Below are positions 9,840-40,682 of a stretch of 64,000 nucleotides of DNA, piece by piece. The translations under genes and the position numbers were made by a program. The notes beneath the pieces were generated by a model that did not search any database, was not told the origin of the DNA, and saw only the letters and a program-made list of their open reading frames with translations. Source of the stretch: Oscillospiraceae bacterium (GTDB lineage: Bacteria > Bacillota > Clostridia > Oscillospirales > JAKOTC01); assembly GCA_035380125.1 (NCBI GenBank), contig DAOSWV010000004.1, positions 43,562 to 107,561 on the forward strand. The letters are read 5' to 3'. The stretch's first letter is position 1; each line of letters opens with the position of its first letter.

Positions 9840-11102
9840 TTAATGCTTTTTCCCGAGGAATTCGACCACATAATAGGTTCCTGCAATATACATTCCTAAA
9901 ATTGAGAGGTTGCTTAAGACTTTACCGCTGTATTCGAAGAATTCGCCATCGTCGGTGGAAGGAGTCTGCTCCTGCGAGGATGCGGATTGTTCGGTGCCGG
10001 AAGATTCCCAGACCTGAGTATCGCTTGAAGTCTGCGAAACACCGGTTTCCGCAGATTCGGAAGGTGTTGTCGCTGATGATGCAGCAGTGCTTGCTGCGGC
10101 GGAAGAAACGACAGATTCTGTTGAGGCGGAACTTGTCACGACAGAACCGGGCGAGGAAGAACTTGTTACGGTTGAACTGGCCGGGGAAGAGCTTGCTGCG
10201 GCGGAAGAAACGACAGATTCTGTCGAGGCAGAACTGGTTGCGGCAGAACTTGCTGAAGCGCTTGAAGCGGAAGAAGCTGTAGCGGTGAATTCCGAGTATA
10301 TGGTATTCGCTTGGGTCACGAGAGAACGCCCCGTTGAACAGCCGGGGGATAGCAGAGAGCAGTGCCTGCTGCAGCCGTTACAAAACAATCTGCCTAAAAA
10401 TTCGTTCAAGGTTTCACCGACGTTCGGGGTTTCGGTTATCGTGTTGCTTGTGGAGGGTCTTGTGCCGATGTTGATGATTTTGACACTGCTTTCCTCCTCG
10501 TTGCCGTATTCGGAGTAGGCGAGTTGTGAGGTCGTGTAATCGACGGTCGCGTCGTCAGCTGCGGTGTATGCCGGTAAGCTGTAAGTGACGGTTGATTTAA
10601 TGCCGTAGAGGATCACAGCCAGAGAAATCACGGCGCCGACTGTTCTGCGGAGACGTGTGGGCTTTTGGATGTGGAATGCGGAGCGGAAAAAGCCGAGAAT
10701 CATCTTCCAGTGCAGTCCGACATGGACACCCAGAACCGCCAGCGTGAGATAGGCCGACCAGGCGTGGATGGTGTACCACAGCTCGTTATTGTCTGCTCTG
10801 ATCTGCCAGAATAGTTCTTTTGAAATTGCAACGCCGGAGACAGCCGTGAGGACGTACCCGATGAGCATCAGAATGTCACAAACCCAGCGCACGGTATTGA
10901 CGTTCGGCTTGGTTTTAAAGATATTTTTACTGACGTTTATAATCCATTTCCAATTGAGAAACAAGTGGAAAAACAACGGAATCAACATACCGATACCGAG
11001 GATTTCGTGCCAGACCGAACCGGTCAGATCGTATGTCATCAGGACGATCCAGATGATTATCATAAAAATGTCTATACTTATTTTAAGAGCGGTTTTCTTC
11101 AT
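9840..11102 (-). CDS. DUF4405-like (cytochrome-b-type) polytopic membrane protein with a Cys cluster, a Ser/Ala/Thr-rich low-complexity region and a C-terminal TM helix
   Basis: The start is taken at MKKTALK (ATG 11102), preceded by GAGGTG. TM helices carry conserved His (WHEILG...FFHLFLNWKW; HAWSAY...GVHVGLHWKM). The Cys cluster reads CNGCSRHCSLLSPGC. Confidence 0.6.
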   Translation of the reverse strand: MKKTALKISIDIFMIIIWIVLMTYDLTGSVWHEILGIGMLIPLFFHLFLNWKWIINVSKNIFKTKPNVNTVRWVCDILMLIGYVLTAVSGVAISKELFWQIRADNNELWYTIHAWSAYLTLAVLGVHVGLHWKMILGFFRSAFHIQKPTRLRRTVGAVISLAVILYGIKSTVTYSLPAYTAADDATVDYTTSQLAYSEYGNEEESSVKIINIGTRPSTSNTITETPNVGETLNEFLGRLFCNGCSRHCSLLSPGCSTGRSLVTQANTIYSEFTATASSASSASASSAATSSASTESVVSSAAASSSPASSTVTSSSSPGSVVTSSASTESVVSSAAASTAASSATTPSESAETGVSQTSSDTQVWESSGTEQSASSQEQTPSTDDGEFFEYSGKVLSNLSILGMYIAGTYYVVEFLGKKH

Positions 11103-26523: not shown

Positions 26524-26527
26524 GCGT

Positions 26528-26581
26528 TGTCCCCATCGCATGGATTGTCCCCATCGCATGGATTGTCCCCATCGCATGGAT
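26528..26581. repeat. perfect 18-bp tandem repeat x3 (TGTCCCCATCGCATGGAT)
   Basis: Three identical head-to-tail copies at 26528-26545, 26546-26563 and 26564-26581. Confidence 0.95.
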
Positions 26582-26597
26582 TCCGCACGGCGGGGAC

Positions 26598-26646: not shown

Positions 26647-27561
26647 ATGAAGATTCTATTCATGGGCACACCTGAATTCGCTGCGGTTTCGCTGGAAAAG
26701 CTGGCCGCTGAATTTGAGGTTGCAGCTGTGATTTCGCAGACGGACAAGCCGAAGGGAAGGGGTTATGAACTGCTGCCGACGCCGGTCAAAGTCACTGCGC
26801 AAAAACACGGCATTCCCGTTTATCAGCCCGCTTCCATGCGCACGCTCGAATCTGCGGAACTGGTTCGGGGATTGAAACCCGATGTGATTGTGGTCGTCGC
26901 TTACGGTAAAATTCTGCCGCTTGATATACTGAGCATTCCGCCGATGGGCTGTATCAATCTGCACGGCTCGCTGCTGCCCAAATACCGCGGCGCCGCACCG
27001 ATTGAATGGGCGGTGATCAACGGCGAGAATAAGACGGGTCTGACGACGATGTATATGGCCGAGGGTATGGATGACGGCGATATGATTGATAAAGTTGAGA
27101 CCGAAATCGGCGAAAATGAGACCGCCTTTGAACTGCGCGGGCGGTTGGCCGTGATCGGTGCGGATTTATTGGCAAAAACCCTGCACGACCTCGAAAAGGG
27201 ACCGCTTCCGAGAACACCGCAAAATCATGCAGAGGCGACCTATGCACCGATGATTAAAAAAGAACTCGGAAAGCTGGATCCTTCTAAACCCGCTCTTGAA
27301 ATTCACAATCTTGCGCGCGGTCTTTCACCGTCGCCGAGTGTTTTTTTCTCGGTGGGCGGTCGGCGGGTCAAATTGCTGAAAACCGCTTTCATCGGCGATA
27401 TGAACGGCACTGCTGGTACAGTGACAATTAAAGACGGTGCATTATATCTGTATTGCGGGACGGGCGCGGTACGATTGGACGAAATTTGCCCCGAGGGCAA
27501 AAAACCGATGACAGGCGCGGCTTATTATAACGGACATCGCTTTGTGCGTGTTGATAATTGA
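26647..27561 (+). CDS. fmt: methionyl-tRNA formyltransferase
   Basis: The start is taken at MKILFMGTPEFA (ATG 26647). HGSLLPKYRGAAPI is present. The upstream in-frame extension is only the translated tandem repeat. Confidence 0.92.
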   Translation: MKILFMGTPEFAAVSLEKLAAEFEVAAVISQTDKPKGRGYELLPTPVKVTAQKHGIPVYQPASMRTLESAELVRGLKPDVIVVVAYGKILPLDILSIPPMGCINLHGSLLPKYRGAAPIEWAVINGENKTGLTTMYMAEGMDDGDMIDKVETEIGENETAFELRGRLAVIGADLLAKTLHDLEKGPLPRTPQNHAEATYAPMIKKELGKLDPSKPALEIHNLARGLSPSPSVFFSVGGRRVKLLKTAFIGDMNGTAGTVTIKDGALYLYCGTGAVRLDEICPEGKKPMTGAAYYNGHRFVRVDN

Positions 27562-27581: not shown

Positions 27582-27613
27582 GGGCGTATATCATTTGATA
27601 TGCGCCCGCTTTT
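27582..27613 (+). terminator. intrinsic terminator after fmt
   Basis: 11-bp stem GGGCGTATATC/GATATGCGCCC followed by GCTTTT. Confidence 0.7.
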
Positions 27614-27714
27614 AACAGATGTCGTAATGTTTATTGCGTTGGCGTTTGCTGCGGTTGACCTTACTCGAGATGGAGCGGTCAATATGAATGACAAGGTAAA
27701 ATTTGATTTTTTTG

Positions 27715-27744
27715 TTGACACATACTGACAAGATGCGATATAAT
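27715..27744 (+). promoter_or_regulatory. sigma-A-type promoter of the cohesin/dockerin gene cluster
   Basis: TTGACA (27715-27720), an 18-nt spacer, then TATAAT (27739-27744). An AAGGAG RBS lies 7 nt before the ATG at 27783. Confidence 0.55.
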
Positions 27745-27782
27745 ATTCACATACGGAAAATTAGCGGGGAAGGAGAAATTGC

Positions 27783-28757
27783 ATGCATTCGCAGAGACGT
27801 TACGGTATCGTTTACATATGCTGCATTCTCTCTGCTTTATTAGTGTCTTTGCTTACATTATCCATATCCGCCGCTTCTCCGACCCTGAGCGCTGAGCTCA
27901 AACCTTCGGCGGACGGGAAGACCATAATAGTGGTTTTTTCGATTACAAATAACCCCGGCATCGCGGGTTTTCGGTTCACGATGAACTATGACAACACGGT
28001 ACTTAAACCGGTGCAGACCGTCTGTAAGATTTCGGACGGATTGTATATCGATAACCACGAAACCGCCACCACCCAATTGAATGTAGTGTGGGCCAACGGA
28101 ACGAATTATACCGGAAACGGAGAACTGTGCAGCGCAACCTTCTCGGTGATCGGAACCGTCAAAGACGGGCAGTATCCGATCACGATTACCTATGATCCTG
28201 CCGATATTGTCAGTATTGTCGACGGTGATCCAAAATCCATCTCCTGCGAAGCCAATGGAATGACCGCATCGGTTCAGACGGTTTCGATACAGTCCGAACC
28301 TTCGCAACCGGTCTCGTCGGAAAACACCGGCAGTCAGATACAGAGCGCATCTCCCGTTTCGGCCTCTTCCTCAGCTTCTGCGGTTTCAAGCATACCTTCA
28401 TCTTCAACGATTTCAACGGGGACAAGCACACCGTTGATTGAAGTGAATAGTCAGGTGCCTGTTCCGGATTATACGAGTGCAGCTTCAGAAAACAGTATAA
28501 CACTGCAGTCCTCTCAATCCGTTTCCGGCACGGTTCAGAGCAGTTCCGGCGAAAACAGTCAAACACAATCACCCGGAACAGAAAGCATAAATTCTTATCC
28601 CACACTGTCCCAATCCTCGGGGGAACAAATCCCGACGCAGTCTCCCGACAGGAAAACCCCCGATATCCTTTTCATTGCGGTTCTGATTATCGCCGCAGGA
28701 GCGGCAGCCGTTTTAATCGTTTTCATCATCAGAAGAAACAAAACACAAGTGAAATAA
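27783..28757 (+). CDS. membrane-anchored cohesin-domain protein: signal/TM, cohesin, Ser/Thr-rich linker, C-terminal TM
   Basis: 324 aa. Cohesin-like hallmarks are NNPGIAGFRFTMNYDNTVLKPV, LNVVWANGTN and GQYPITITYD. The C-terminus reads ILFIAVLIIAAGAAAVLIVFIIRRNK. Confidence 0.75.
   Translation: MHSQRRYGIVYICCILSALLVSLLTLSISAASPTLSAELKPSADGKTIIVVFSITNNPGIAGFRFTMNYDNTVLKPVQTVCKISDGLYIDNHETATTQLNVVWANGTNYTGNGELCSATFSVIGTVKDGQYPITITYDPADIVSIVDGDPKSISCEANGMTASVQTVSIQSEPSQPVSSENTGSQIQSASPVSASSSASAVSSIPSSSTISTGTSTPLIEVNSQVPVPDYTSAASENSITLQSSQSVSGTVQSSSGENSQTQSPGTESINSYPTLSQSSGEQIPTQSPDRKTPDILFIAVLIIAAGAAAVLIVFIIRRNKTQVK
27879..28283 (+). other. cohesin-like module 1 (approximate bounds)
   Basis: aa 33-167 of ORF 27783; see motifs above. 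Confidence 0.6.
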
Positions 28758-28773
28758 CAGAGAGGTGCCAAAA

Positions 28774-31700
28774 ATGTTAAAAGCGAAAAAGTTACTGATC
28801 ATCGTTCTGGGTGCATTGCTCGTTGTGAGTATGGCAGCTGTAATTGCAGTGAACGCCAGTACCAACCCGGCGCTGACAGTATCGTCTCACAGCATCGATT
28901 ACGACGCTGATTCGGCTGCACGGCAAATCACGGTTACAGTGAGTTTGCCCGAGAATTCGGAGTATTTGATTGCGGGTTCAAGATTCAACATCGGGTTTGA
29001 CCCGACAGTGATGACCTGCGATACGAGTACGGGGATTACCTGGAATGTCAGTAATGGCTTCAAAACCGCAAATCTTGCCGTTGTCAATACAAATTTGACA
29101 AATCTCACATTGGTTTGGGCAAATGACACAAATATTTCTTATACAACAACGACAGACAACACGGCATGGCTTGTCAAAATAACTTTCACCATTGCCGATA
29201 ATGCGCCGGCGGGTGTATATCCAATTACTATGTCGTTCCCCATCACTGGGACTTATGAGGGGAATATGACCAATGCTGCGCTTGACGATGTCCCGACCGA
29301 TTTGGTCAGCGGTTCGCTGACCATCAACCCGATTCCGATTACCTATACTGCGTCCATCACGGGTCTGAACGGCAGCGGCGAAGCGGTGTACGGCACCACA
29401 CTCGGCGCCAGCGCACTCAATATTACCGACGGACGCGACGGCAATTTAACGACTTATACCGAGGATCAAATCAGTTCTTTCACCTATCAGTGGTACAGAG
29501 ACGGCGCAGCGATCACAGGCGCCACAAGTGCAACCTATTCGCCGACTGCTGATGATATCGCGGCGACAGATACCGATATTGCAGCCAGCAACGATGGCTG
29601 CATCCTCTCCGTTACCATCGGAGCAACCGGGAATTTCACCGCAACGCCGGCGTCTTCAAGCGAGGTCAAAGCGGTCAGAGCGGCTTATACGGGCACCGTC
29701 CCGGTGCCGGTTCTGGTCTCCCGTACGACCGATTCGATCACCATCGGCATCTCTGATGATACGCTGACTAATTCAGACTGCCAATTTAAAATGGGCACCG
29801 AGGGCACCTGGCAGGACAGCCCGACGTTTAACAGTCTTGATAATTCGTTCAGCTATGTCTTCTATGCGCGTGTGGCAGAAACGACCACCACGTTAGCATC
29901 TGACGCAAGCGCCTCTTCCGCAACAATGAGACCCCAGCTCTCGGCAAGCGGAACACTGGGAATTGACGATACGACACCCGCATATGGCGAAACGCTGGGG
30001 GCGTATACAAGCGTACTGGATGCCGATTTTAAAGACCACGGTCTCAGCACGGCGGTATATACTTGGTATCGCGACAGCGTCACTGCGGCGAATGTCGTCG
30101 GTACGGGTTCGAGCTATACCGTGGTTGAGGCAGATATCGGTCACACCCTGACGCTCGGTATCAGCGCGGTGGATAATTTCACCGATTATAGTTGGGGCTT
30201 CACAGGTGCGGTTTATTCTTCGGCAACCGCAACGGTTGCAAAAGCCAACAATACTGCAACACCGGTCACACCTTCCGTCAATTCCAATGAATATGTAAAT
30301 ATCGGCGGATTGGTAATCAGCATACAAGAAAATCAGGAATATAAGATTACGCAAGGTGGCGTAACGGTGAGTGATTGGGCTTCTTATACCGGAACCACCA
30401 AGCAATTTGCAACATACCTCACGGATTGGTTGAAACCCGTGACGGATTATGTGATCACAACTCGGTTCACGGCTACCTCTACACAAAACGCCGGTACGGT
30501 GGAACAGACGCTTAATGTAACCACCGCACAATGGCGGCTGGATAACAGCGCCCTTTCGGTAAGTCCGGATTCTTGGGTTTACGGCATTGAAGAGACGGCA
30601 ACCGGAACCACAGATGTCATTGAGGCGGAGTCGTCGTTGATTTATCAATGGTACAGAGATACGGATGCAATTGTCGGGGCAAATACGAACAAGTATACGC
30701 CGGTTGAAGCGGACATCGGAAAGACGCTTAAAGTCACGTTGACTGTCGGCGGCAGTTACTCGTGGGATTCAGCACTGAACAAAGAGGAATCCGGTGTGGT
30801 CGATAAGGCCGCCGGTCCCGCCGCACCCGCCACGCCGGAATTGAGCAGTAAGTCCTACGACTATATCGAAGTGTATTCATCACAGGATAAACAATACGCG
30901 ATCACACAGACCCAGGGCAGCGCGCTGTATTGGACAGACGGCGCGATGTCAACCGTCGGCTGGATGGAATTGTCGCCCAATACAACCTATTACATCTATA
31001 CACGCGTCAAAGAGACCGAGACGAACTATGCCAGCGCTGCCTGCACAACACCGCTCGAGGTTACAACCGACAAATACCCGGTGACGGGTACCGTGACCAT
31101 CAGTGTATCGGGCGGCGGAGATGCCGAATGGGGCAAGACGCTGACGGCAGACACCACGAACATTAACCCGCAGTCAGCGGTTCCGTATATCATCTATAGC
31201 TGGTATTCCGGCGGAACACTGGTTCAATCCGGTACCGGATCTTCTTACGTGACGACCGAGTCCGATTTCGGAAAGAGCGTCTATGTTGTAGTTGTTGTAA
31301 ACGATAACCCGTATACAACACCCACACCGATTCAATCAAATTCAATAACGATTCTTGCAAAGACCATCAGCGGTACGGCAATCATAGCGGATCAAGCCGC
31401 TGACGGTGCCGAATGGGGCAGTGTGGTATTTGCGAATTCTTCTGGAATTATACCGTCCAGCATGCCTCGGACGAGTATTACATATGCCTGGTCAGTGGAA
31501 GGAACTGTAAAAGCAACGGGTCCCCTCTATTCGCCGGCTTCAACTGATGTCGGCAAAACCCTGACATTAACACTCGGCGCAACAGGAAGTTATCGCGGTT
31601 CTGTCACAACCACAACGACAATCGTGAAACAGACCATCACCGCGAAACCGACCGTATCGGGCAGCCCGACCTTCGGAACCACCATCAGCGCCGCGCTTGA

Positions 31701-34629
31701 CGCCATTCCGGCGGATGCCAGGACCAATATCGGGTATCAGTGGTATCGCAGTGATACCGAAACCGGAACCGGAACAGCGATTACAGGCGCAACGAGTGCA
31801 ACCTATGTTGTAATCGGGGATGATATCGGGAAATGGCTTTATGTAGCAGTCACGGTTGATTCCGCCAATGCGACTTATCGCGGCACCACCCGCAGTTTAG
31901 CTGTTGAGGGCGGTAAGGAGATCATCACCGCTACCATCGGCATCTCGGGTTCCGCAAAATACGACGAAGAACTTACAATAACCATAGGCTCACTGACACC
32001 TGCGGGAGCGACCTACGACGTGATCTGGTACCGTGACGACGTTCAGCTCAAACGCGGTGACGGCGCAACCCTCGCCAACACGCAGTATACGCTTGTCAAA
32101 GACGATATCGGAACTGTGATCAGCGCCACAATCATCGGCACCGGCAACTATACCGGCACACCGACAGCTGCCACAACGGCGACTGTCACCAAAGCCGACG
32201 GACCGGAGAAACCCGCTGCGCCGACCGCAGTTTCCAATACCTACAGCACGATCACCGTTACCGGCATCACCGGATATGCATACAAGATCGACAGCGGCAG
32301 CTGGGGTGCGACCAGAACATCGGACGGCACGTTTGACTTCACAGGATTGAGCCCGAATACCGAACACTCGATTTATTGTTACATTCCGGAAACGGATACG
32401 CATTTTGCATCCGTGTCCAGTGATGCGACGGTTGTCACAACACTCAAACAGACAATCACCGGATCGGTTTCGATCACCGGAACACTGACTTATGGAGAGA
32501 CCTTGTCGGTCAATATCAGCGGCGTGCTCCCGGCGGGCGCACAAGCCGGACTGACCTATGCGTGGTATCGCGGAGACAGCGCAGAGACCGCCACAGAGGC
32601 GATCGGCGTCACCTCATCGACACTGACACTCGGTGCTTCCGAGGTCGGGAAATATATCAAAGTGGAAGTTACCGGATCCGGTGACTACACCGGAGCATTG
32701 TCAGCGGTCAGTTCCGCCGCAGTGGCAAAAGCAAACGCGACTGCTCCGGATACACCTGTACTGATCAGTAAAACTTATAATAGCTTTACTATAGCTTCAT
32801 CGTTAGACAAACAATATGCAGCGACACAAACACTCGGCGGTACGCTGAACTGGATTGACGGCGGGGGTATAAGCACCGGATGGATGGCGTCTCCCAACAC
32901 CACCTACTATGTGTATGCGCGCCTCAAGGAGACTGATACGCATAACGCCAGTCCTGCCTGCGACGAACCGCTCATAGTTACGACCGACAAGCAGCCCATC
33001 ACCGGGACGGTCACAATCAGTGGTTCAACCTCCTACGGCGATACGCTGACAGCGGTCATTACCGGTATCTCACCGTTTTACGCACGGTATCATCTGACCT
33101 ATCAATGGTTTCGGATGGACGGAGGCGGCACAGTTCATTTAATACCCGGAGCGACAAGTCAAACCTATACGATCACCACTGATGATATCGGTTGCCAAAT
33201 AAATGTTGCCGCAATCGCAGAAACCGACAGTGATTATACAGGCTCTGTCGTATCCGCAAAAACAGCTACAGTTACCAAGAAGACCATCTCCGGCAGCATC
33301 AGCATCACCGGCAGTGCTTCTTATGGTGACACACTGAGCGTAGTTATCGCCAACGTCGCACCGAGCGGTTCTCAGGGCACACTGACATATCAGTGGCAGC
33401 GCTATACGGGAACCTCCGGCGTGACGACAAGCTCCACGCTTACTACGGGATCTTGGCAGAACATCGTCGGCGCAACGAATCCCACCTATACGGTGACGGC
33501 GGATGACATTGGTTCTATCGGCGGAGTCACAACTTTGCTCCGTGTGGTCGTGACGGGTGACGATGTCAACTATACCGGTTCACTTACGTCCGCAAGCGTA
33601 ACACCCGATAAGAAACTGGTCAGCGGTACGATCTCCATCACCGGAACGGTTCGGTACGGCTCCACGGTCACCGCTTCGGACAGTGTGCTTCCGAGCGGTG
33701 CAAACGCCGATATGAGCTATCGTTGGTTCCTTGACGGAACGGAAGTAGTCGGCAGAACCGACTCGACCTTCGCCATCGATGATGCTTCTTGGATCGGCAA
33801 GACTCTGACAGTCGAGAAATATGTGTCCAACACGGGCAGCTATTACACCGGTAGCGTGGCAAGCGCGGGAAAAGTGATCGGCAAGACCGTTAATCCCGGA
33901 ACGACGGTCCCGGTGCAAGTGCTGAGATTCGACAAAACAACCATCACGATTCAAGTCGTTCCGGGGCAAATCTACAGCATCGACGGCGGACTGACCTGGA
34001 CTGACGAGACGTTTGACGGCGTGTTCAGCGGCTTGACGCCCGGCCAGACCTACACAATCATCACCAAGATTCCCGGCAGTGAGACAGTCGATGACAGTAC
34101 GACGCTTTCGCTCACCATGCAGACCCAACCCGACGCTGTCAATGTGACCTATGAATTCTACAACGGAATCACCGGCACGGTCATTGTTCCGAGCCGCGTG
34201 GAAATCGGAACGCAGGCGACCATTCAAGTCATCGCGCCGGAGGGTTATAAACTGACCGAGATCTTCGATTCCATGCCGAACGGCGTGACACTCACGGCCA
34301 TCGGAAATGACACCTTCACCTTTGTCGCAGGCAAATACGACATTCGAATCTTTATCGCATTTACCGCGATAGAAACGGGCGGCGGACAGACTTCGAGCCC
34401 GACGAGTTCCTACACCTATTCGGTCCCGTCTACAGTTACGTCCAGCCCGAGTTCGACAGCTTCTACAGTCTCGCAGACAAGCAGTCAGACCGTCAGCACC
34501 GGCAGCGACACTTCGGTACCCAACATGGGTATGGGCGGCGCGTCGAATGCCGCGGGAATTGCAATCGGCCTGTTCGGCCTCTTGGGCATCGCACTGGTTG
34601 TGATCGAAAAGAGAAGAATTAAGAATTAA
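28774..34629 (+). CDS. giant cell-surface repeat protein: N-terminal cohesin-like module, 11 Y-x-W-[YF]-R Ig-like modules, 6 FN3-like modules, and a C-terminal motif-TM-basic tail
   Basis: The start is taken at ATG 28774 (GAGAGGTG RBS); a GTG at 28765 is also possible. A signal/anchor helix is present. IAGSRFNIGFDPTVMTC, LTLVWANDTN and AGVYPITMSF mark the cohesin-like module. The recurring pattern is YQWYRD..I.GAT..TY....DIGK.L.V.V. The C-terminus reads VPNMGMGGASNAAGIAIGLFGLLGIALVVIEKRRIKN. Confidence 0.8.
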   Translation: MLKAKKLLIIVLGALLVVSMAAVIAVNASTNPALTVSSHSIDYDADSAARQITVTVSLPENSEYLIAGSRFNIGFDPTVMTCDTSTGITWNVSNGFKTANLAVVNTNLTNLTLVWANDTNISYTTTTDNTAWLVKITFTIADNAPAGVYPITMSFPITGTYEGNMTNAALDDVPTDLVSGSLTINPIPITYTASITGLNGSGEAVYGTTLGASALNITDGRDGNLTTYTEDQISSFTYQWYRDGAAITGATSATYSPTADDIAATDTDIAASNDGCILSVTIGATGNFTATPASSSEVKAVRAAYTGTVPVPVLVSRTTDSITIGISDDTLTNSDCQFKMGTEGTWQDSPTFNSLDNSFSYVFYARVAETTTTLASDASASSATMRPQLSASGTLGIDDTTPAYGETLGAYTSVLDADFKDHGLSTAVYTWYRDSVTAANVVGTGSSYTVVEADIGHTLTLGISAVDNFTDYSWGFTGAVYSSATATVAKANNTATPVTPSVNSNEYVNIGGLVISIQENQEYKITQGGVTVSDWASYTGTTKQFATYLTDWLKPVTDYVITTRFTATSTQNAGTVEQTLNVTTAQWRLDNSALSVSPDSWVYGIEETATGTTDVIEAESSLIYQWYRDTDAIVGANTNKYTPVEADIGKTLKVTLTVGGSYSWDSALNKEESGVVDKAAGPAAPATPELSSKSYDYIEVYSSQDKQYAITQTQGSALYWTDGAMSTVGWMELSPNTTYYIYTRVKETETNYASAACTTPLEVTTDKYPVTGTVTISVSGGGDAEWGKTLTADTTNINPQSAVPYIIYSWYSGGTLVQSGTGSSYVTTESDFGKSVYVVVVVNDNPYTTPTPIQSNSITILAKTISGTAIIADQAADGAEWGSVVFANSSGIIPSSMPRTSITYAWSVEGTVKATGPLYSPASTDVGKTLTLTLGATGSYRGSVTTTTTIVKQTITAKPTVSGSPTFGTTISAALDAIPADARTNIGYQWYRSDTETGTGTAITGATSATYVVIGDDIGKWLYVAVTVDSANATYRGTTRSLAVEGGKEIITATIGISGSAKYDEELTITIGSLTPAGATYDVIWYRDDVQLKRGDGATLANTQYTLVKDDIGTVISATIIGTGNYTGTPTAATTATVTKADGPEKPAAPTAVSNTYSTITVTGITGYAYKIDSGSWGATRTSDGTFDFTGLSPNTEHSIYCYIPETDTHFASVSSDATVVTTLKQTITGSVSITGTLTYGETLSVNISGVLPAGAQAGLTYAWYRGDSAETATEAIGVTSSTLTLGASEVGKYIKVEVTGSGDYTGALSAVSSAAVAKANATAPDTPVLISKTYNSFTIASSLDKQYAATQTLGGTLNWIDGGGISTGWMASPNTTYYVYARLKETDTHNASPACDEPLIVTTDKQPITGTVTISGSTSYGDTLTAVITGISPFYARYHLTYQWFRMDGGGTVHLIPGATSQTYTITTDDIGCQINVAAIAETDSDYTGSVVSAKTATVTKKTISGSISITGSASYGDTLSVVIANVAPSGSQGTLTYQWQRYTGTSGVTTSSTLTTGSWQNIVGATNPTYTVTADDIGSIGGVTTLLRVVVTGDDVNYTGSLTSASVTPDKKLVSGTISITGTVRYGSTVTASDSVLPSGANADMSYRWFLDGTEVVGRTDSTFAIDDASWIGKTLTVEKYVSNTGSYYTGSVASAGKVIGKTVNPGTTVPVQVLRFDKTTITIQVVPGQIYSIDGGLTWTDETFDGVFSGLTPGQTYTIITKIPGSETVDDSTTLSLTMQTQPDAVNVTYEFYNGITGTVIVPSRVEIGTQATIQVIAPEGYKLTEIFDSMPNGVTLTAIGNDTFTFVAGKYDIRIFIAFTAIETGGGQTSSPTSSYTYSVPSTVTSSPSSTASTVSQTSSQTVSTGSDTSVPNMGMGGASNAAGIAIGLFGLLGIALVVIEKRRIKN
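28867..29331 (+). other. cohesin-like module 2 (approximate bounds)
   Basis: Module immediately after the N-terminal hydrophobic helix of the giant ORF. Confidence 0.55.
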
Positions 34630-34646
34630 TATTGTTCAAATCAAAA

Positions 34647-34673
34647 CGCCGCGCGGCTAAAAACCGCGCGGCG
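34647..34673 (+). terminator. GC-rich hairpin after the giant gene; weak T-tract, possibly a partial terminator
   Basis: CGCCGCGCGG-ctaaaaa-CCGCGCGGCG. Confidence 0.45.
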
Positions 34674-34722
34674 ATTCAGTCTAAAGGCAAATTACATAAA
34701 ATGTAAGAAGTGGAGAAAACAT

Positions 34723-37047
34723 ATGAAAAAGCTCATAGCTCTATTCCTTGCGGTATCACTGCTTTCACTGACGCTGACCGGAATTCCCGTTTCGGCTCAG
34801 GATACGGATTCCGGCATAAGAGCAGTTACATATCAATATATCGGCACAAGTCCGACGGGCTTGAACGATTATGTTCTGCTGGATGAAGACGGAAACGTCA
34901 TTGAAAACAAAGGCTTGATTGAGAATGATAACCGCGACAGAGCGCTTCCCGTCTCATTCGATTTGCGCAATGTTGAAGGCGTCAGTTATGTTACATCGGT
35001 AAAGAATCAGGGGAGTTACGGTACCTGCTGGTCTTTTGCTTCGGTGGGCGCTCTGGAATCCAATCTGATTATGCAGGGTATTGCGGACACATCGATTGAC
35101 CTTTCCGAATTGCATACGGCTTGGTATGCTTATACGAAAGATTCTGTGAGTGGCAGTACGACCTATAACGACGGAAAATCTTACACAGGCATAGATAAAT
35201 ACAATGCGGGCGGATGGTCAAGCACAGCGTATGGGCTTTGGGGTTCTGCCGAGGGTGCGCAACTGGACGAAAACGCACTGTATTCAAACGCGTCCAATAC
35301 TGGTTTTTTCACCGAGACACAACGAAAAGAATCTTATTACAGGGTCAAAAGCGCCTATGAAATTCCCGTAAATAATACGGATGCGGTGAAAAGCAGTTTG
35401 GTGGCAAACGGCGCTATGTATTTATCGTTTTGGTTAAACTGGAATTGTTTTAATGCATCTAAATCAACATATTATAATCCTTCTTATGATTATTCCAACG
35501 ACCCGTATTCTTCCAGTGGCGGACATGCGGTCCTTCTTGTTGGTTGGGATGATGATTATCCGGCTTCAAACTTTGTGACAACGCCGGCCGGAAACGGCGC
35601 TTGGCTGTGCCGGAACAGCTGGGGGACAAGTTCGGGTGATGGGGGTTACTTCTGGATTTCATATTATAATCATGCGATCACCAATTTCACGACTTTTATC
35701 GGTACAACCAATGACAATTATGATAATTACAATCAATATGAGCGCACCGGTTTCCCTCTTGCTTTAGTCAGCGATGAAATTTATCTTGCCAATGTCTTCA
35801 CTGCAAACACGGCGTCCACCCTCGAAGCGGTGGCTTTCCGTATGGAGAGTTACGACGGCACCTCCGGAACACCGGGATTTGATTATACAATTAAAATTTA
35901 TAAGAATTTGCCGACAACGGTGACAAACCCGACTGCAGGTACTCTTTCCGCTTCGGTTTCGGGACATTCCAATTACGGCGGCTACCTTACGGTGGATTTG
36001 TCTTCGGCTATATCACTTGCCGCCGGCACCAAATATTCCATCGTGATTTCATGTAAATCCACTTCGGCAATTTACGATGGTGTAGTTAATTTCGGCGCTG
36101 AGAAATTGGTCGGAACTACTCTTGATGAGGGAACAAATTCGAGCGCAGGAATCAGCTTTTGGGGTGATGGAGTCACCTGGGTTGATACATACGGGACCGC
36201 ATCCATCAGCGGTTTTGATTTTGACGGCAACTTCCCGATCAAAGCATTGACAGATGACGTCGATTCGACCTATGCGGCCACAAGGGCATTGGTTCAACAG
36301 CAACTCGACGAGACCGAGGGCTGTACACAGGGTACGGCAACCGCAGACCAGTGGACGGCATTTACCGAGGCCAGAACTCTCTGTGAAAGCATTGTGGACG
36401 ATACTACTGTGAGCAAAGCGGATTTGAACAACGCGGTCATTCGAATGAAGGTTACTCGTGAAAACGCACCGGGCATCTCATATCCGACTTCGGCGGATTT
36501 CACAATTTCCGTCAGCAACGGAATTGCGACTGTTACAGCTTATACCGGAACCGACACTTCGGTAACCGTACCGAAAACACTGGACGGATATACGCTGTCG
36601 ATTATCTCCTCAACCGCGTTCAGCGGGAATACCGCAATCAAAACCGTTTATTTCGAAGGAAATCCCTCCTCCATCTCCTCAACTGCGTTCTCTGGATGCA
36701 CGAGTCTCCAGTTCGTGTATTTCATGGGCAACGCGCCGGCGGTTTCCGGCACGATAGGGGCGGGCAGTCCGATTGGCGTTCCGACTTATTATAAAAACGG
36801 CACAACCGGATGGACCAGCAGCCCTTGGAGCGGCAATGCGACCGCAGTGGTTCCCGGTGACTTCAATTTAGACGTTTCTATGAATATCACCGATGCCGTG
36901 GCGTTCATTCAACGGTTGGCACAAGTCGGTTCTTATACCCTTGATGAATTCGCCGCAATTGATATTACACGTGACGGTTCGGTCAATATGGCGGATATCG
37001 TCCTATTAGTACAAGCATTGGCCAATCCTGCAATCGAGCTTAATTAA
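34723..37047 (+). CDS. secreted papain-family (C1) cysteine protease with BspA-type leucine-rich repeats and a C-terminal type-I-like dockerin
   Basis: Signal peptide MKKLIALFLAVSLLSLTLTGIPVSAQD. Catalytic residues are intact: QGSYGTCWSFAS (Cys102), GGHAVLLVGWDD (His268), RNSWG (Asn298). LRR segments read TLSIISSTAFSGNTAIKTVYF and ISSTAFSGCTSLQFVYF. The dockerin is described in the next feature. Confidence 0.85.
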   Translation: MKKLIALFLAVSLLSLTLTGIPVSAQDTDSGIRAVTYQYIGTSPTGLNDYVLLDEDGNVIENKGLIENDNRDRALPVSFDLRNVEGVSYVTSVKNQGSYGTCWSFASVGALESNLIMQGIADTSIDLSELHTAWYAYTKDSVSGSTTYNDGKSYTGIDKYNAGGWSSTAYGLWGSAEGAQLDENALYSNASNTGFFTETQRKESYYRVKSAYEIPVNNTDAVKSSLVANGAMYLSFWLNWNCFNASKSTYYNPSYDYSNDPYSSSGGHAVLLVGWDDDYPASNFVTTPAGNGAWLCRNSWGTSSGDGGYFWISYYNHAITNFTTFIGTTNDNYDNYNQYERTGFPLALVSDEIYLANVFTANTASTLEAVAFRMESYDGTSGTPGFDYTIKIYKNLPTTVTNPTAGTLSASVSGHSNYGGYLTVDLSSAISLAAGTKYSIVISCKSTSAIYDGVVNFGAEKLVGTTLDEGTNSSAGISFWGDGVTWVDTYGTASISGFDFDGNFPIKALTDDVDSTYAATRALVQQQLDETEGCTQGTATADQWTAFTEARTLCESIVDDTTVSKADLNNAVIRMKVTRENAPGISYPTSADFTISVSNGIATVTAYTGTDTSVTVPKTLDGYTLSIISSTAFSGNTAIKTVYFEGNPSSISSTAFSGCTSLQFVYFMGNAPAVSGTIGAGSPIGVPTYYKNGTTGWTSSPWSGNATAVVPGDFNLDVSMNITDAVAFIQRLAQVGSYTLDEFAAIDITRDGSVNMADIVLLVQALANPAIELN
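36847..37044 (+). other. dockerin-like module with two Ca-binding loop/helix repeats
   Basis: GDFNLDVSMNITDAVAFIQRL and IDITRDGSVNMADIVLLVQAL. Both loops fit D-x-[NT]-x-D-x3-N-x2-D. Confidence 0.7.
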
Positions 37048-37065
37048 ACGAAAACAACGAATAAA

Positions 37066-37096
37066 ACAGGCGCGGCAGATTTTCTGCCGCGCCTGT
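37066..37096. terminator. bidirectional terminator between the protease gene (+) and the ABC exporter gene (-)
   Basis: 13-bp stem ACAGGCGCGGCAG/CTGCCGCGCCTGT, with an A-rich 5' flank and TGTT on the 3' side. Confidence 0.65.
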
Positions 37097-37109
37097 TGTT
37101 ATGTATTGA

Positions 37110-38891: not shown

Positions 38892-40682
38892 TTATTTATT
38901 ATTGGTGCGGAAAAGCCGCTTGCCGTCGAGCTGATGATTCAGCATGGTATTGGCCTTTCTTTGCAGCTGTTCGGTGATCTCGGGCGACAGCCAGAAGATG
39001 TCTTCGAGCGCGGCTGTCGGTGAGAGCAGCAGCATTTCGCGTTCCCGGCCTTCGATCAGGCGGATGATTTCATAGGTATTGTCGATTTCGGCGCGGGTCA
39101 GGCGTTCGTATTCGAGCAGGCGCGGATCGGCGTCGAGCGGCCACTGCGGGCTGATTTCCGGTTCTTCGGTATAGTCGGTGGAATCGACGATGTCTTGAAA
39201 TTTCATCGCGTGCATATAGTTCTTTGCAAAACAGTTTAACAGCGAAAAGCGGTCTGCGGCCAACAGGAACAATTCCGGATGATCCGATTTTTCCGCAACA
39301 TTCAAATACAGTTTTCGTGCCGCATCAATTTGCGCCATCATCTTCTGAAGACATTTCGAGGCCAGAAATACCGCATAGTATCCACGGATGAACGAGGTGT
39401 TTTGGTTGTTGAGCAGGTCGTTGGCCTGTTCTTCATCGACGGCTTGGAACTGATACGGGCGGTAATAATCCTTTTCTTCTTCAGTCAGTTCGTCGGGGAA
39501 CAGCACAAACGGACGGTTGATGAGTCGCTGATTGACGCTGGTCCACGAGAAGCCCTCAATGCAGGTGTCGAGGTAGTGTTTGACGGAGAGGTCAATGGCC
39601 TGCCATGCGTCGACAAGCGCACCGGAATTTTGGCTTCCGGCGACCTGTGCGGCAAACTTTTTCAACAACGCGGCGCGGTCGGCAAAGGAACGAGTCGGGT
39701 GTTCTGAGAACATCTCATACAGCGTAAAATAACCGTCGAGGTCGTCGTCGTTGATATACAGCCGCAAAATTTCGCTCTTGCTTTCATTGGCATTTTGGAG
39801 TTGGCGCAGGTATTCAAAATAGAGCGGAATGCAGCGTACCGGAGAGTAGGTGAATTCGTAATTAACGTCGACCAACGAGGAGAGCGGCGTGCCTTTGTTG
39901 CTCTTGAAGTTGACAGCCATACCGTCGTCGAGCAGCGGCCAGACGGCGTCCATGACGCTCTCATCGGCTTTAAACCCGATATTGCTGTTGGTCTCGATGG
40001 AGATCTCCCGTCCCACGTCGGCAGCGCCTTCACGGAAGACGCGGAAATAACCGAGAATCCGCTGAGCTAACGGGATGTTCTTGCACCATTCGGGTCCGTT
40101 CGGGCCGTCGTAGAGTCCGCTGGAATGGCAGATACCCGCGCCGCAGTCGTTGGTGTGCAGATAGACATAATCAATTTCGGCGGTTTCGCAGAGTCTTTTC
40201 ATCGCGCTGCGATACATCGCCAGTACTTCGGGATTGTCCATGCAGGGACTGTAATAATAATTGGTTGCACGGCGGGGATGGTCGCAGCGTGGGCCACGCC
40301 AGGACGGATGGTCACGATAGACCTCCTCGGGCAGATAAAACGGCTCTGCGAAGTAGGCGGCGGCTTTCAAGCCGTATTTTTTCAAGATCGCACAGCGTTT
40401 TTTGATCAGTTCAAAGTTGCGGTTGGCATAATCCTGCGGAATGTAATTTTTCAATTCTTTCGGGACGATGATTTTAAACAGCGCCGAGTTGAGCATGCCC
40501 CAGTTGGGATAGGGATCACTCATATCGCGTTCCCAGATCCAGCGGCTTTTTTCGACTTCGGTGACGAAGATGTGGGTCGCACCGGCTTTGGCAGCCCTTG
40601 CGGCATATGTTTCGAACTTTTTCAGATCGGTGACATCGGTGTTGATTGGCGTGATCTGAAAAATGGTCATTTTCTTTTTCAT
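38892..40682 (-). CDS. hypothetical 596-aa cytoplasmic protein; family not recognised
   Basis: Long ORF with coding-like composition and no signal peptide. Its stop lies 15 nt upstream of the ABC exporter start, which implies co-transcription. Confidence 0.6.
   Translation of the reverse strand: MKKKMTIFQITPINTDVTDLKKFETYAARAAKAGATHIFVTEVEKSRWIWERDMSDPYPNWGMLNSALFKIIVPKELKNYIPQDYANRNFELIKKRCAILKKYGLKAAAYFAEPFYLPEEVYRDHPSWRGPRCDHPRRATNYYYSPCMDNPEVLAMYRSAMKRLCETAEIDYVYLHTNDCGAGICHSSGLYDGPNGPEWCKNIPLAQRILGYFRVFREGAADVGREISIETNSNIGFKADESVMDAVWPLLDDGMAVNFKSNKGTPLSSLVDVNYEFTYSPVRCIPLYFEYLRQLQNANESKSEILRLYINDDDLDGYFTLYEMFSEHPTRSFADRAALLKKFAAQVAGSQNSGALVDAWQAIDLSVKHYLDTCIEGFSWTSVNQRLINRPFVLFPDELTEEEKDYYRPYQFQAVDEEQANDLLNNQNTSFIRGYYAVFLASKCLQKMMAQIDAARKLYLNVAEKSDHPELFLLAADRFSLLNCFAKNYMHAMKFQDIVDSTDYTEEPEISPQWPLDADPRLLEYERLTRAEIDNTYEIIRLIEGREREMLLLSPTAALEDIFWLSPEITEQLQRKANTMLNHQLDGKRLFRTNNK

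Follow-up and report, generated by a model that had tools for sequence, protein, structure and literature searches.

Proposed surface tethering of a Cwp84-like cysteine protease by a cohesin-dockerin locus in a lineage of Oscillospiraceae

Described systems and how the locus compares

Cohesin-dockerin pairs have been studied almost wholly as assembly devices for polysaccharide-degrading complexes, and surveys have repeatedly recorded dockerin-bearing peptidases and leucine-rich repeat (LRR) proteins to which no role is assigned. Here we describe three adjacent open reading frames (ORF1, ORF2 and ORF3) in a 64-kb stretch of contig DAOSWV010000004.1 (the window) from an uncultured anaerobic-digester Oscillospiraceae bacterium. 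ORF1 and ORF2 each carry a cohesin, and ORF3 is a cysteine protease that ends in a dockerin. From sequence and structure prediction we propose that they constitute a lineage-specific cohesin-dockerin tethering module, which would hold the secreted protease on the cell surface. An earlier note, made from the letters of this DNA, had described the genes as a self-contained display system, and its claims are taken up where the evidence bears on them.

The closest described systems are the amylosome of Ruminococcus bromii and the cellulosome of R. flavefaciens, in which, as proposed here, cell-anchored cohesins (Sca2/Sca5, ScaE) receive dockerin proteins in the Oscillospiraceae/Ruminococcus neighbourhood. 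Among the 222 dockerin proteins of R. flavefaciens FD-1, 16 modules are peptidase-related and 28 are LRRs (PMC2930009). The cell-anchored Sca2 cohesin of R. bromii is bound by the dockerins of a peptidase and of an LRR protein, while binding by a cysteine-protease dockerin was very weak (PMC4611034), and Doc17, a dockerin protease, is part of the R. bromii amylosome proteome (10.1101/2025.03.31.646359). Roles of dockerin proteins in protein catabolism have already been suggested by rumen metagenomics (PMC6487960). Earlier work on R. flavefaciens and R. bromii has documented peptidases, cysteine proteases and LRR proteins that bear dockerins, and proteins of these kinds are a feature that the locus shares with them (PMC2930009, PMC4611034, 10.1101/2025.03.31.646359). 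The Ruminococcus systems, however, are centred on carbohydrate-active enzymes (CAZymes), have scattered dockerin genes and are anchored by sortase (LPXTG) signals, whereas the locus has its scaffold genes beside the presumed cargo, and ORF1 and ORF2 each have one cohesin and a C-terminal hydrophobic helix.

Three further systems invite comparison. In Cellulosilyticum lentocellum, ClcC and ClcD (Clole_2599/Clole_2598) are adjacent genes for a single-cohesin and a single-dockerin protein that form a heterodimer in vitro (PMC13487519). The locus resembles this reduced system in its adjacent genes, but ClcC/ClcD enhances cellulase activity on cellulose substrates (PMC13487519), whereas the cargo here is a protease and the cohesin proteins are two, both membrane-anchored and very different in length. 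Cellulosomal peptidases and serpins, for which post-translational processing and nitrogen scavenging have been proposed (review PMC12484212), are likewise dockerin-bearing, proteolysis-related proteins for cohesin scaffolds; in Clostridium thermocellum and its relatives, S8 proteases and inhibitors are accessory to a cellulolytic complex, whereas the ORF3 locus has no polysaccharide-degrading context in its 64 kb. Finally, Cwp84 is a surface cysteine protease of Clostridioides difficile that cleaves the S-layer precursor SlpA; both it and ORF3 are secreted C1A proteases that combine a short pro-region with a cathepsin-L-like domain and a lectin-like domain (PMC4089489). What sets the locus apart from these systems is a second cohesin on a giant immunoglobulin (Ig) stalk, a Cwp84-like cargo and an LRR-dockerin cassette common to its cargoes.

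A multi-cohesin scaffoldin is the mark of a cellulosome or amylosome, and ORF1 and ORF2 have one cohesin each, which points to tethering rather than multi-enzyme assembly. We take the locus to be a variant of cohesin-dockerin surface tethering that, within the 64 kb, lacks the defining features of cellulosomes and amylosomes and leaves the known principle unchanged; the description of it as a counterpart of a cellulosome was overstated.

Two anchored cohesin proteins and a protease with a dockerin

The boundaries of ORF1, ORF2 and ORF3 given in the earlier note were confirmed, and their modules are as follows.

27783-28757, + strand: ORF1, 324 aa; signal peptide, one cohesin, Ser/Thr/Pro/Gln-rich linker, C-terminal transmembrane helix, basic tail
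27867-28292, + strand: ORF1 cohesin module; Pfam Cohesin, 30.7 bits on the isolated segment
28774-34629, + strand: ORF2, 1951 aa; signal peptide, cohesin, array of Ig-like and FN3-like modules, Ser/Thr-rich linker, hydrophobic helix, basic tail
28852-29340, + strand: ORF2 cohesin module; Pfam Cohesin on the isolated N-terminus
34723-37047, + strand: ORF3, 774 aa; secreted Cwp84-like C1A cysteine protease with a C-terminal LRR-dockerin cassette
34945-35667, + strand: peptidase C1 catalytic domain; Pfam Peptidase_C1, 86 bits
35761-36252, + strand: lectin-like domain of the Cwp84 type (PF18560); Pfam, 63.4 bits against a cut-off of 27, residues 347-510
36595-36723, + strand: short BspA-type LRR segment; sub-threshold LRR_5, PDB 4gt6
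36853-37020, + strand: dockerin; two Ca-loop/helix repeats, DFNLDVSMNITD and DITRDGSVNMAD

In NCBI, ORF1 is labelled 'cohesin domain-containing protein' (HOP10289.1), ORF2 'hypothetical protein' (HOP10290.1) and ORF3 'C1 family peptidase' (HOP10291.1), and identical proteins occur in NCBI metagenome-assembled genomes (MAGs) named Oscillospiraceae bacterium and in several JGI and ENA metagenome assemblies. The hidden Markov models (HMMs) for Cohesin, Dockerin_1 and Peptidase_C1 all matched above their curated Pfam cut-offs. That for Cohesin (PF00963, cut-off 24.1 bits) matched whole ORF1 at 27.7 bits over residues 43-138; it had no match to whole ORF2 at E <= 1, and scored 32.1 bits over residues 53-157 when the first 200 residues of ORF2 were scanned alone. 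AlphaFold2 models of the two cohesins, computed from alignments of profile-search matches with the sequences of the orthologous loci L007 and L008 left out, had predicted local distance difference test (pLDDT) scores of 91.6 for ORF1 and 79.0 for ORF2. When each model was compared with the PDB by Foldseek, cohesins only appeared among the 50 matches listed, with E down to 1e-7 and template modelling (TM) scores of ~0.7 in those matches. They included the R. flavefaciens ScaC and ScaE cohesins, Clostridium type I and type II cohesins and a non-cellulosomal cohesin of Archaeoglobus; the best listed match of the ORF1 cohesin was 5lxv, the R. flavefaciens ScaC cohesin (E 1e-7, TM 0.72), and the nearest PDB sequence to the ORF2 cohesin was that of R. 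flavefaciens ScaE (E 0.005). The cohesin-like modules of the earlier note are borne out by these matches and by models that agree with the nine-stranded beta-sandwich (jelly-roll) of cohesins, and the outcome that it had named as counting against them, a lack of HMM matches or a fold other than that of cohesins, is not what was found. The two cohesins are 26% identical to each other (BLASTP E 1e-8).

A cohesin profile made from both cohesins of the window together with two close fragments matched 2,923 representative proteins at E <= 1e-3, superseding a word-indexed search with the ORF1 cohesin that had given two fragments only. Many of these proteins had several matched stretches, consistent with multi-cohesin scaffoldins. 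Among the 149 nearest cohesin representatives, 84 had a dockerin loop motif and many terminated directly in a dockerin, and a hydrophobic C-terminal helix was found in just four, two of which are ORF1 and its L008 orthologue. Such relatives, mostly multi-cohesin or cohesin-dockerin proteins, would suit a different explanation, in which ORF1 and ORF2 act as scaffoldins that anchor a larger repertoire of dockerin proteins from across the genome, maybe with CAZymes or adaptor scaffoldins among them, and the protease is one cargo of many or docks to a scaffoldin from another locus. The genes would then belong to an ordinary cellulosome- or amylosome-like system and not to a module dedicated to protease display. 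Ruminococcus species offer precedents, with 27 to >200 dockerin proteins that are scattered over the genome and include peptidases and LRR proteins, and with an R. bromii Sca2 cohesin that binds amylase, peptidase and LRR dockerins alike (PMC4611034, PMC2930009). Against this explanation stands the inventory of the window: in a six-frame translation of the entire 64 kb, purpose-built HMMs for dockerins and cohesins detected no cohesin beyond the one each in ORF1 and ORF2 and no intact dockerin other than that of ORF3, with one intergenic vestige only. No CAZyme domain or carbohydrate-binding module (CBM) was seen in a domain scan of the locus proteins. With the orthologous loci described below also taken into account, we regard such a general role as rather unlikely.

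Residues 6-33 and 292-319 of ORF1 are hydrophobic, and between cohesin and anchor the protein has a stalk of ~125 low-complexity residues (60% Ser/Thr/Pro/Gln over residues 160-290). The ATG at 28774, 16 nt past the ORF1 stop and preceded by GAGAGGTG, is the most plausible start of ORF2. Beyond its cohesin, ORF2 consists of SCAB-Ig/AIR9-type Ig repeats, at least nine of them with a Y-x-W-Y-R motif, and FN3-like modules, so that the cohesin is at the distal end of ~1,700 residues of such modules; the whole-protein scan also gave a sub-threshold ZirU-like match. A search for DNA tandem repeats in ORF2 found none; in their DNA, the repeats of the protein have diverged too far. A hydrophobic segment at residues 1923-1947 closes the protein, and with that of ORF1 it accounts for the C-terminal anchors noted earlier. 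Neither protein had a Pfam match to SLH or the Gram-positive anchor (LPXTG), and NCBIfam sorting-domain models gave nothing significant on either C-terminus. ORF1 and ORF2 are thus predicted to be exported proteins, each with one cohesin at its mature N-terminus and a hydrophobic C-terminal anchor.

A side observation concerns the ORF2 C-terminus, where a motif [AV]P[ND]MG (VPNMG, APDMG and APNMG) occurs 10-12 residues ahead of the C-terminal helix and basic tail in ORF2 (34530-34626 in the window) and its L007 and L008 orthologues. The three-part layout of motif, helix and basic tail is like that of a sortase sorting signal, with Met replacing Thr. ORF1 ends in a plain transmembrane helix and has no such motif.

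The catalytic residues of ORF3 (Gln96, Cys102, His268 and Asn298) are at exactly the positions previously assigned and align with those of Cwp84, the best solved relative (4ci7, 4d59; E 8e-21). The alignment spans the C1 domain and continues into the lectin-like domain, ending at ORF3 residue 443, about the first 100 residues of the latter. Cwp84 is held by three cell-wall-binding CWB2 (PF04122) repeats and has a known substrate in SlpA, whereas ORF3 ends in LRR and dockerin and had no CWB2 match in the Pfam scan; ORF3 therefore shares the catalytic core of Cwp84 and is not a Cwp-family S-layer protein. The BspA-type LRRs attributed to the protease amount to a short segment just under threshold: against a cut-off of 27.7 bits, LRR_5 (PF13306) scored 23.4 for whole ORF3 and 27.2 for the segment alone. 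Residues 590-679 match PDB 4gt6, labelled merely 'cell surface protein', at E 1.2e-6, and precomputed PF13306 matches are on record for related LRR-dockerin cassettes. The dockerin pattern reported at the C-terminus proved to be a genuine Dockerin_1 match (PF00404; 31.3 bits on the whole protein at residues 711-766 and 35.2 isolated, cut-off 22.9; purpose-built HMM E 9e-21), with both Ca-loop repeats intact and D/N at loop positions 1, 3, 5, 9 and 12.

More than 1,000 database proteins match ORF3 at E <= 1e-5, and nearly all of the 120 listed have the C1 and lectin-like core. In those 120 the attachment module is SLH, CWB2, LPXTG, choline-binding, type IX secretion system (T9SS), Big_2 or dockerin, so that the dockerin appears as one of several interchangeable surface-attachment devices. 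This variety suggests that, in C1-lectin proteases, a dockerin is one alternative among modules that hold the enzyme at the surface. It also bears on the idea that the protease chiefly matures its neighbours (ORF2, ORF1 and the upstream LRR protein introduced below), with docking bringing it to its substrate instead of displaying a nutritional or adhesive activity. By analogy with Cwp84, which cleaves SlpA (PMC4089489), is the closest solved relative and matches from the C1 into the lectin-like domain, such a role would fit a protease that is conserved beside a giant surface protein in three lineages. The identity to Cwp84 is low, however, the core is widespread with many anchors and in many contexts, and maturation is compatible with docking rather than exclusive of it; as the chief function we consider it improbable.

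Two further observations on ORF3 and its homologues are recorded here. The helical segment ahead of the LRR (residues ~505-606, 36235-36540) matched no domain model apart from a hint of FIVAR below threshold (E 0.026); in toxin-complex proteins of Clostridium perfringens, dockerins occur together with FIVAR modules. Two homologues from other metagenomes, P0010 (1271 aa) and P0014 (630 aa), could be protease-bearing adaptor scaffoldins or self-associating units.

Orthologous loci, a second cargo and the pairing of dockerin with cohesin

The order of cohesin-transmembrane gene, giant cohesin gene, protease-dockerin gene and convergent ATP-binding cassette (ABC) transporter gene is kept in two further lineages, L007 and L008/L009, whose proteases are 66-67% identical to ORF3. 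A fourth, more distant lineage, MAG GCA_964576175.1, has on one contig (L020) an LRR-dockerin gene followed by a cohesin-transmembrane gene (P0182) and then by a giant cohesin-Ig gene. Orthologues of ORF1 were found in L007, L008/L013 and L020, and those of ORF2 in L007, L008 and L020; ORF3 orthologues have 66-68% identity in three lineages and 49% in the fourth. Between orthologues, the cohesins are 40-73% (ORF1 type) and 44-61% (ORF2 type) identical.

The intergenic vestige in the window lies directly upstream of the cohesin genes:

27609-27704, + strand: vestige of a dockerin-coding 3' end, LLTDVVMFIALAFAAVDLTRDGAVNMNDKVKF, ~30 codons, between the fmt terminator and the promoter

First spotted by a six-frame motif scan, it matches the purpose-built dockerin HMM at E 2.6e-4 and aligns with the repeat-1 helix and repeat-2 Ca loop of the ORF3 dockerin, and also with the dockerins of the L007 and L008 upstream genes. 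In L008 this position holds an intact 1183-aa gene whose product has Glug repeats, Big_2, LRR and a C-terminal dockerin, the last ~130 residues closely resembling the ORF3 C-terminus; in L020 there is an intact multi-LRR dockerin gene, and in L007 a 158-aa ORF of just LRR and dockerin that has no signal peptide. Judged by these alignments, the vestige appears to be a non-functional remnant of an upstream LRR-dockerin cargo gene, and the lineages appear to form a decay series in which that gene is intact in L008 and L020, truncated in L007 and vestigial in the window. The view of a self-contained system with the protease as the only dockerin cargo consequently holds within the window; beyond it, relatives have an upstream LRR-dockerin cargo, and in the window this second cargo has decayed. 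As a separate observation, L008 also has its own short dockerin vestige between terminator and promoter.

In all four lineages the cohesin genes are directly preceded by a dockerin-coding sequence (intact, truncated or vestigial). The dockerins of the three closer lineages are 58-80% identical, within a lineage as well as between lineages. In GCA_964576175.1 the protease dockerin is 68% identical to the upstream-cargo dockerin of the same genome, and the two have 34-42% and 44-53% identity, respectively, to the dockerins of other lineages, although the proteases as wholes share 49%; with four lineages, these values do not suffice for a statistical statement. The dockerins therefore follow the genome and not the carrier protein, as expected if both cargoes fit the same genome-specific cohesins, and this co-variation suggests a shared partner for the two cargo dockerins within each genome. 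It also speaks against the general-scaffoldin explanation, as does the finding of the LRR-dockerin cassette only at the locus and its orthologues, albeit in weak searches.

The same observations bear on the view that the cohesins and the dockerin are not mutual partners at all, their adjacency being that of a shared surface-protein island. The cohesins would then be structural domains or adhesin domains for other ligands, and the dockerin a Ca-binding stabiliser or a module with another target. Non-cellulosomal modules to which no partner has been assigned are indeed many (as cited in PMC13487519 and PMC2930009), and several R. bromii dockerins, that of the cysteine protease included, bound none or almost none of the cohesins tested (PMC4611034). 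Yet the arrangement recurs in four lineages with dockerin-coding sequence always abutting the cohesin genes, both Ca-loop repeats are intact, the dockerins co-vary within the genome, and an adjacent cohesin/dockerin gene pair has been shown experimentally to bind (PMC13487519). We consider such a lack of interaction very improbable, and pairing of the ORF3 dockerin with at least one of the adjacent cohesins probable.

In the tethering module as we propose it, the ORF3 dockerin would, after Sec export, bind one or both of the neighbouring cohesins in a Ca2+-dependent manner, and the protease would be displayed near the wall when on ORF1 or tens of nanometres out when on ORF2. There it could break down extracellular protein as a source of nutrients, or process proteins of the surface as Cwp84 does SlpA. 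The ancestral module would also have docked a second cargo, the LRR-rich dockerin protein encoded just upstream. A stronger version is possible but doubtful: a private, carbohydrate-independent system with a genome-specific, co-evolving dockerin/cohesin pair and two display heights, whose sole cargoes are the Cwp84-like protease and LRR-rich adhesin-like proteins. If that were true, a cohesin-dockerin device would have been recruited as a stand-alone proteolytic and adhesive surface organelle in non-fibrolytic Oscillospiraceae. The compactness and linkage of the locus, conserved over several lineages, make the partner question testable with three recombinant modules. Should the pairing hold, surface tethering of a protease would be a concrete function for non-cellulosomal modules in protein-fermenting anaerobes, and the modules would provide an orthogonal cohesin-dockerin pair for engineering.

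Several points weigh against tethering by the adjacent cohesins. The pairing is argued from adjacency, conservation and dockerin co-variation in only four lineages, and a conserved hairpin, described below, parts ORF2 from ORF3. In GCA_964576175.1 a separate contig of 3.3 kb carries the protease orthologue (P0005), which has a TTGACA-17-TATAAT site of its own (L021, 1-215) and an AMP-binding enzyme, not an ABC transporter, as its downstream neighbour; the protease may be unlinked to the cohesin genes in this genome, although contig breaks limit certainty. Three distant C1-lectin-dockerin proteases have no cohesin gene in their flanks (up to 10 kb on each side). Such separation of protease and cohesin genes, with one of the proteases near a CBM26-dockerin gene, also favours the general-scaffoldin explanation, and other dockerin proteins, CAZymes included, or scaffoldins may be encoded elsewhere in the genome, beyond the 64-kb window. 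Finally, the searches for LRR-dockerin cassette carriers were insensitive: that of the protein database returned six proteins and missed the query's own protein, and that of metagenome contigs returned seven loci and missed the query's own contigs. The sole close relative in the metagenome search was L013 (75% identity), an L008-type locus.

The idea that C1-lectin-dockerin proteases generally have a cohesin gene beside them was considered and is ruled out by the three distant examples; the tight gene linkage is specific to the lineage of ORF1 to ORF3.

Transcription signals and neighbouring sequence

The following signals flank and divide the three genes.

27582-27613, + strand: fmt terminator-like hairpin, GGGCGTATATC-ATTT-GATATGCGCCC followed by GCTTTT, read from the sequence
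27715-27744, + strand: sigma-70-type promoter-like site, TTGACA-18-TATAAT, 12/12 match
34647-34673, + strand: GC-rich stem-loop CGCCGCGCGG...CCGCGCGGCG between ORF2 and ORF3, found by scan and RNA folding
37065-37097, both strands: terminator-like hairpin common to ORF3 and the convergent ABC-transporter gene, 15-bp stem with 10 GC pairs

The earlier note had placed the three genes behind one strong promoter. The site itself stands, and both of its hexamers are unchanged across the window, L007 and L008. A single transcript is another matter, given the promoter-like site of the protease in GCA_964576175.1 and the stem-loop between ORF2 and ORF3. The latter has a 10-bp stem by RNA folding and 12 pairs by scan (-28.3 kcal/mol, z -5.0), and its stem is conserved in three lineages (the window, L007 at ~9935-9965 and L008 at ~9915-9945); a transcript common to the three genes is therefore uncertain. 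The stem-loop lacks a U-tract on the coding (+) strand, and the scan found no promoter-like site between it and ORF3. The hairpin could be an attenuator, a processing site or mRNA 3' end, or a stabilising element that sets the ratio of scaffold to cargo, and co-transcription of ORF1 to ORF3 with attenuation is plausible. The fmt hairpin went unlisted in the terminator scan, its T-run being of four T only, and its core is kept in L008, downstream of the upstream cargo gene.

Two observations concern neighbouring genes. Beside the convergent ABC-transporter gene, a 596-aa protein (38892-40682, - strand) is kept in the window, L007 and L008; it has no recorded Pfam match and no obvious signal peptide, and is probably outside the cohesin-dockerin module. 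Between def and fmt, at 26527-26582, there is a perfect 18-nt tandem repeat (TTGTCCCCATCGCATGGA, 3.1 copies), because of which the fmt ORF, as called mechanically, begins with a spurious extension, MSPSHGLSPSHGLSPSHG. The true fmt start is probably the ATG near 26647, in agreement with the 304-aa gene call.

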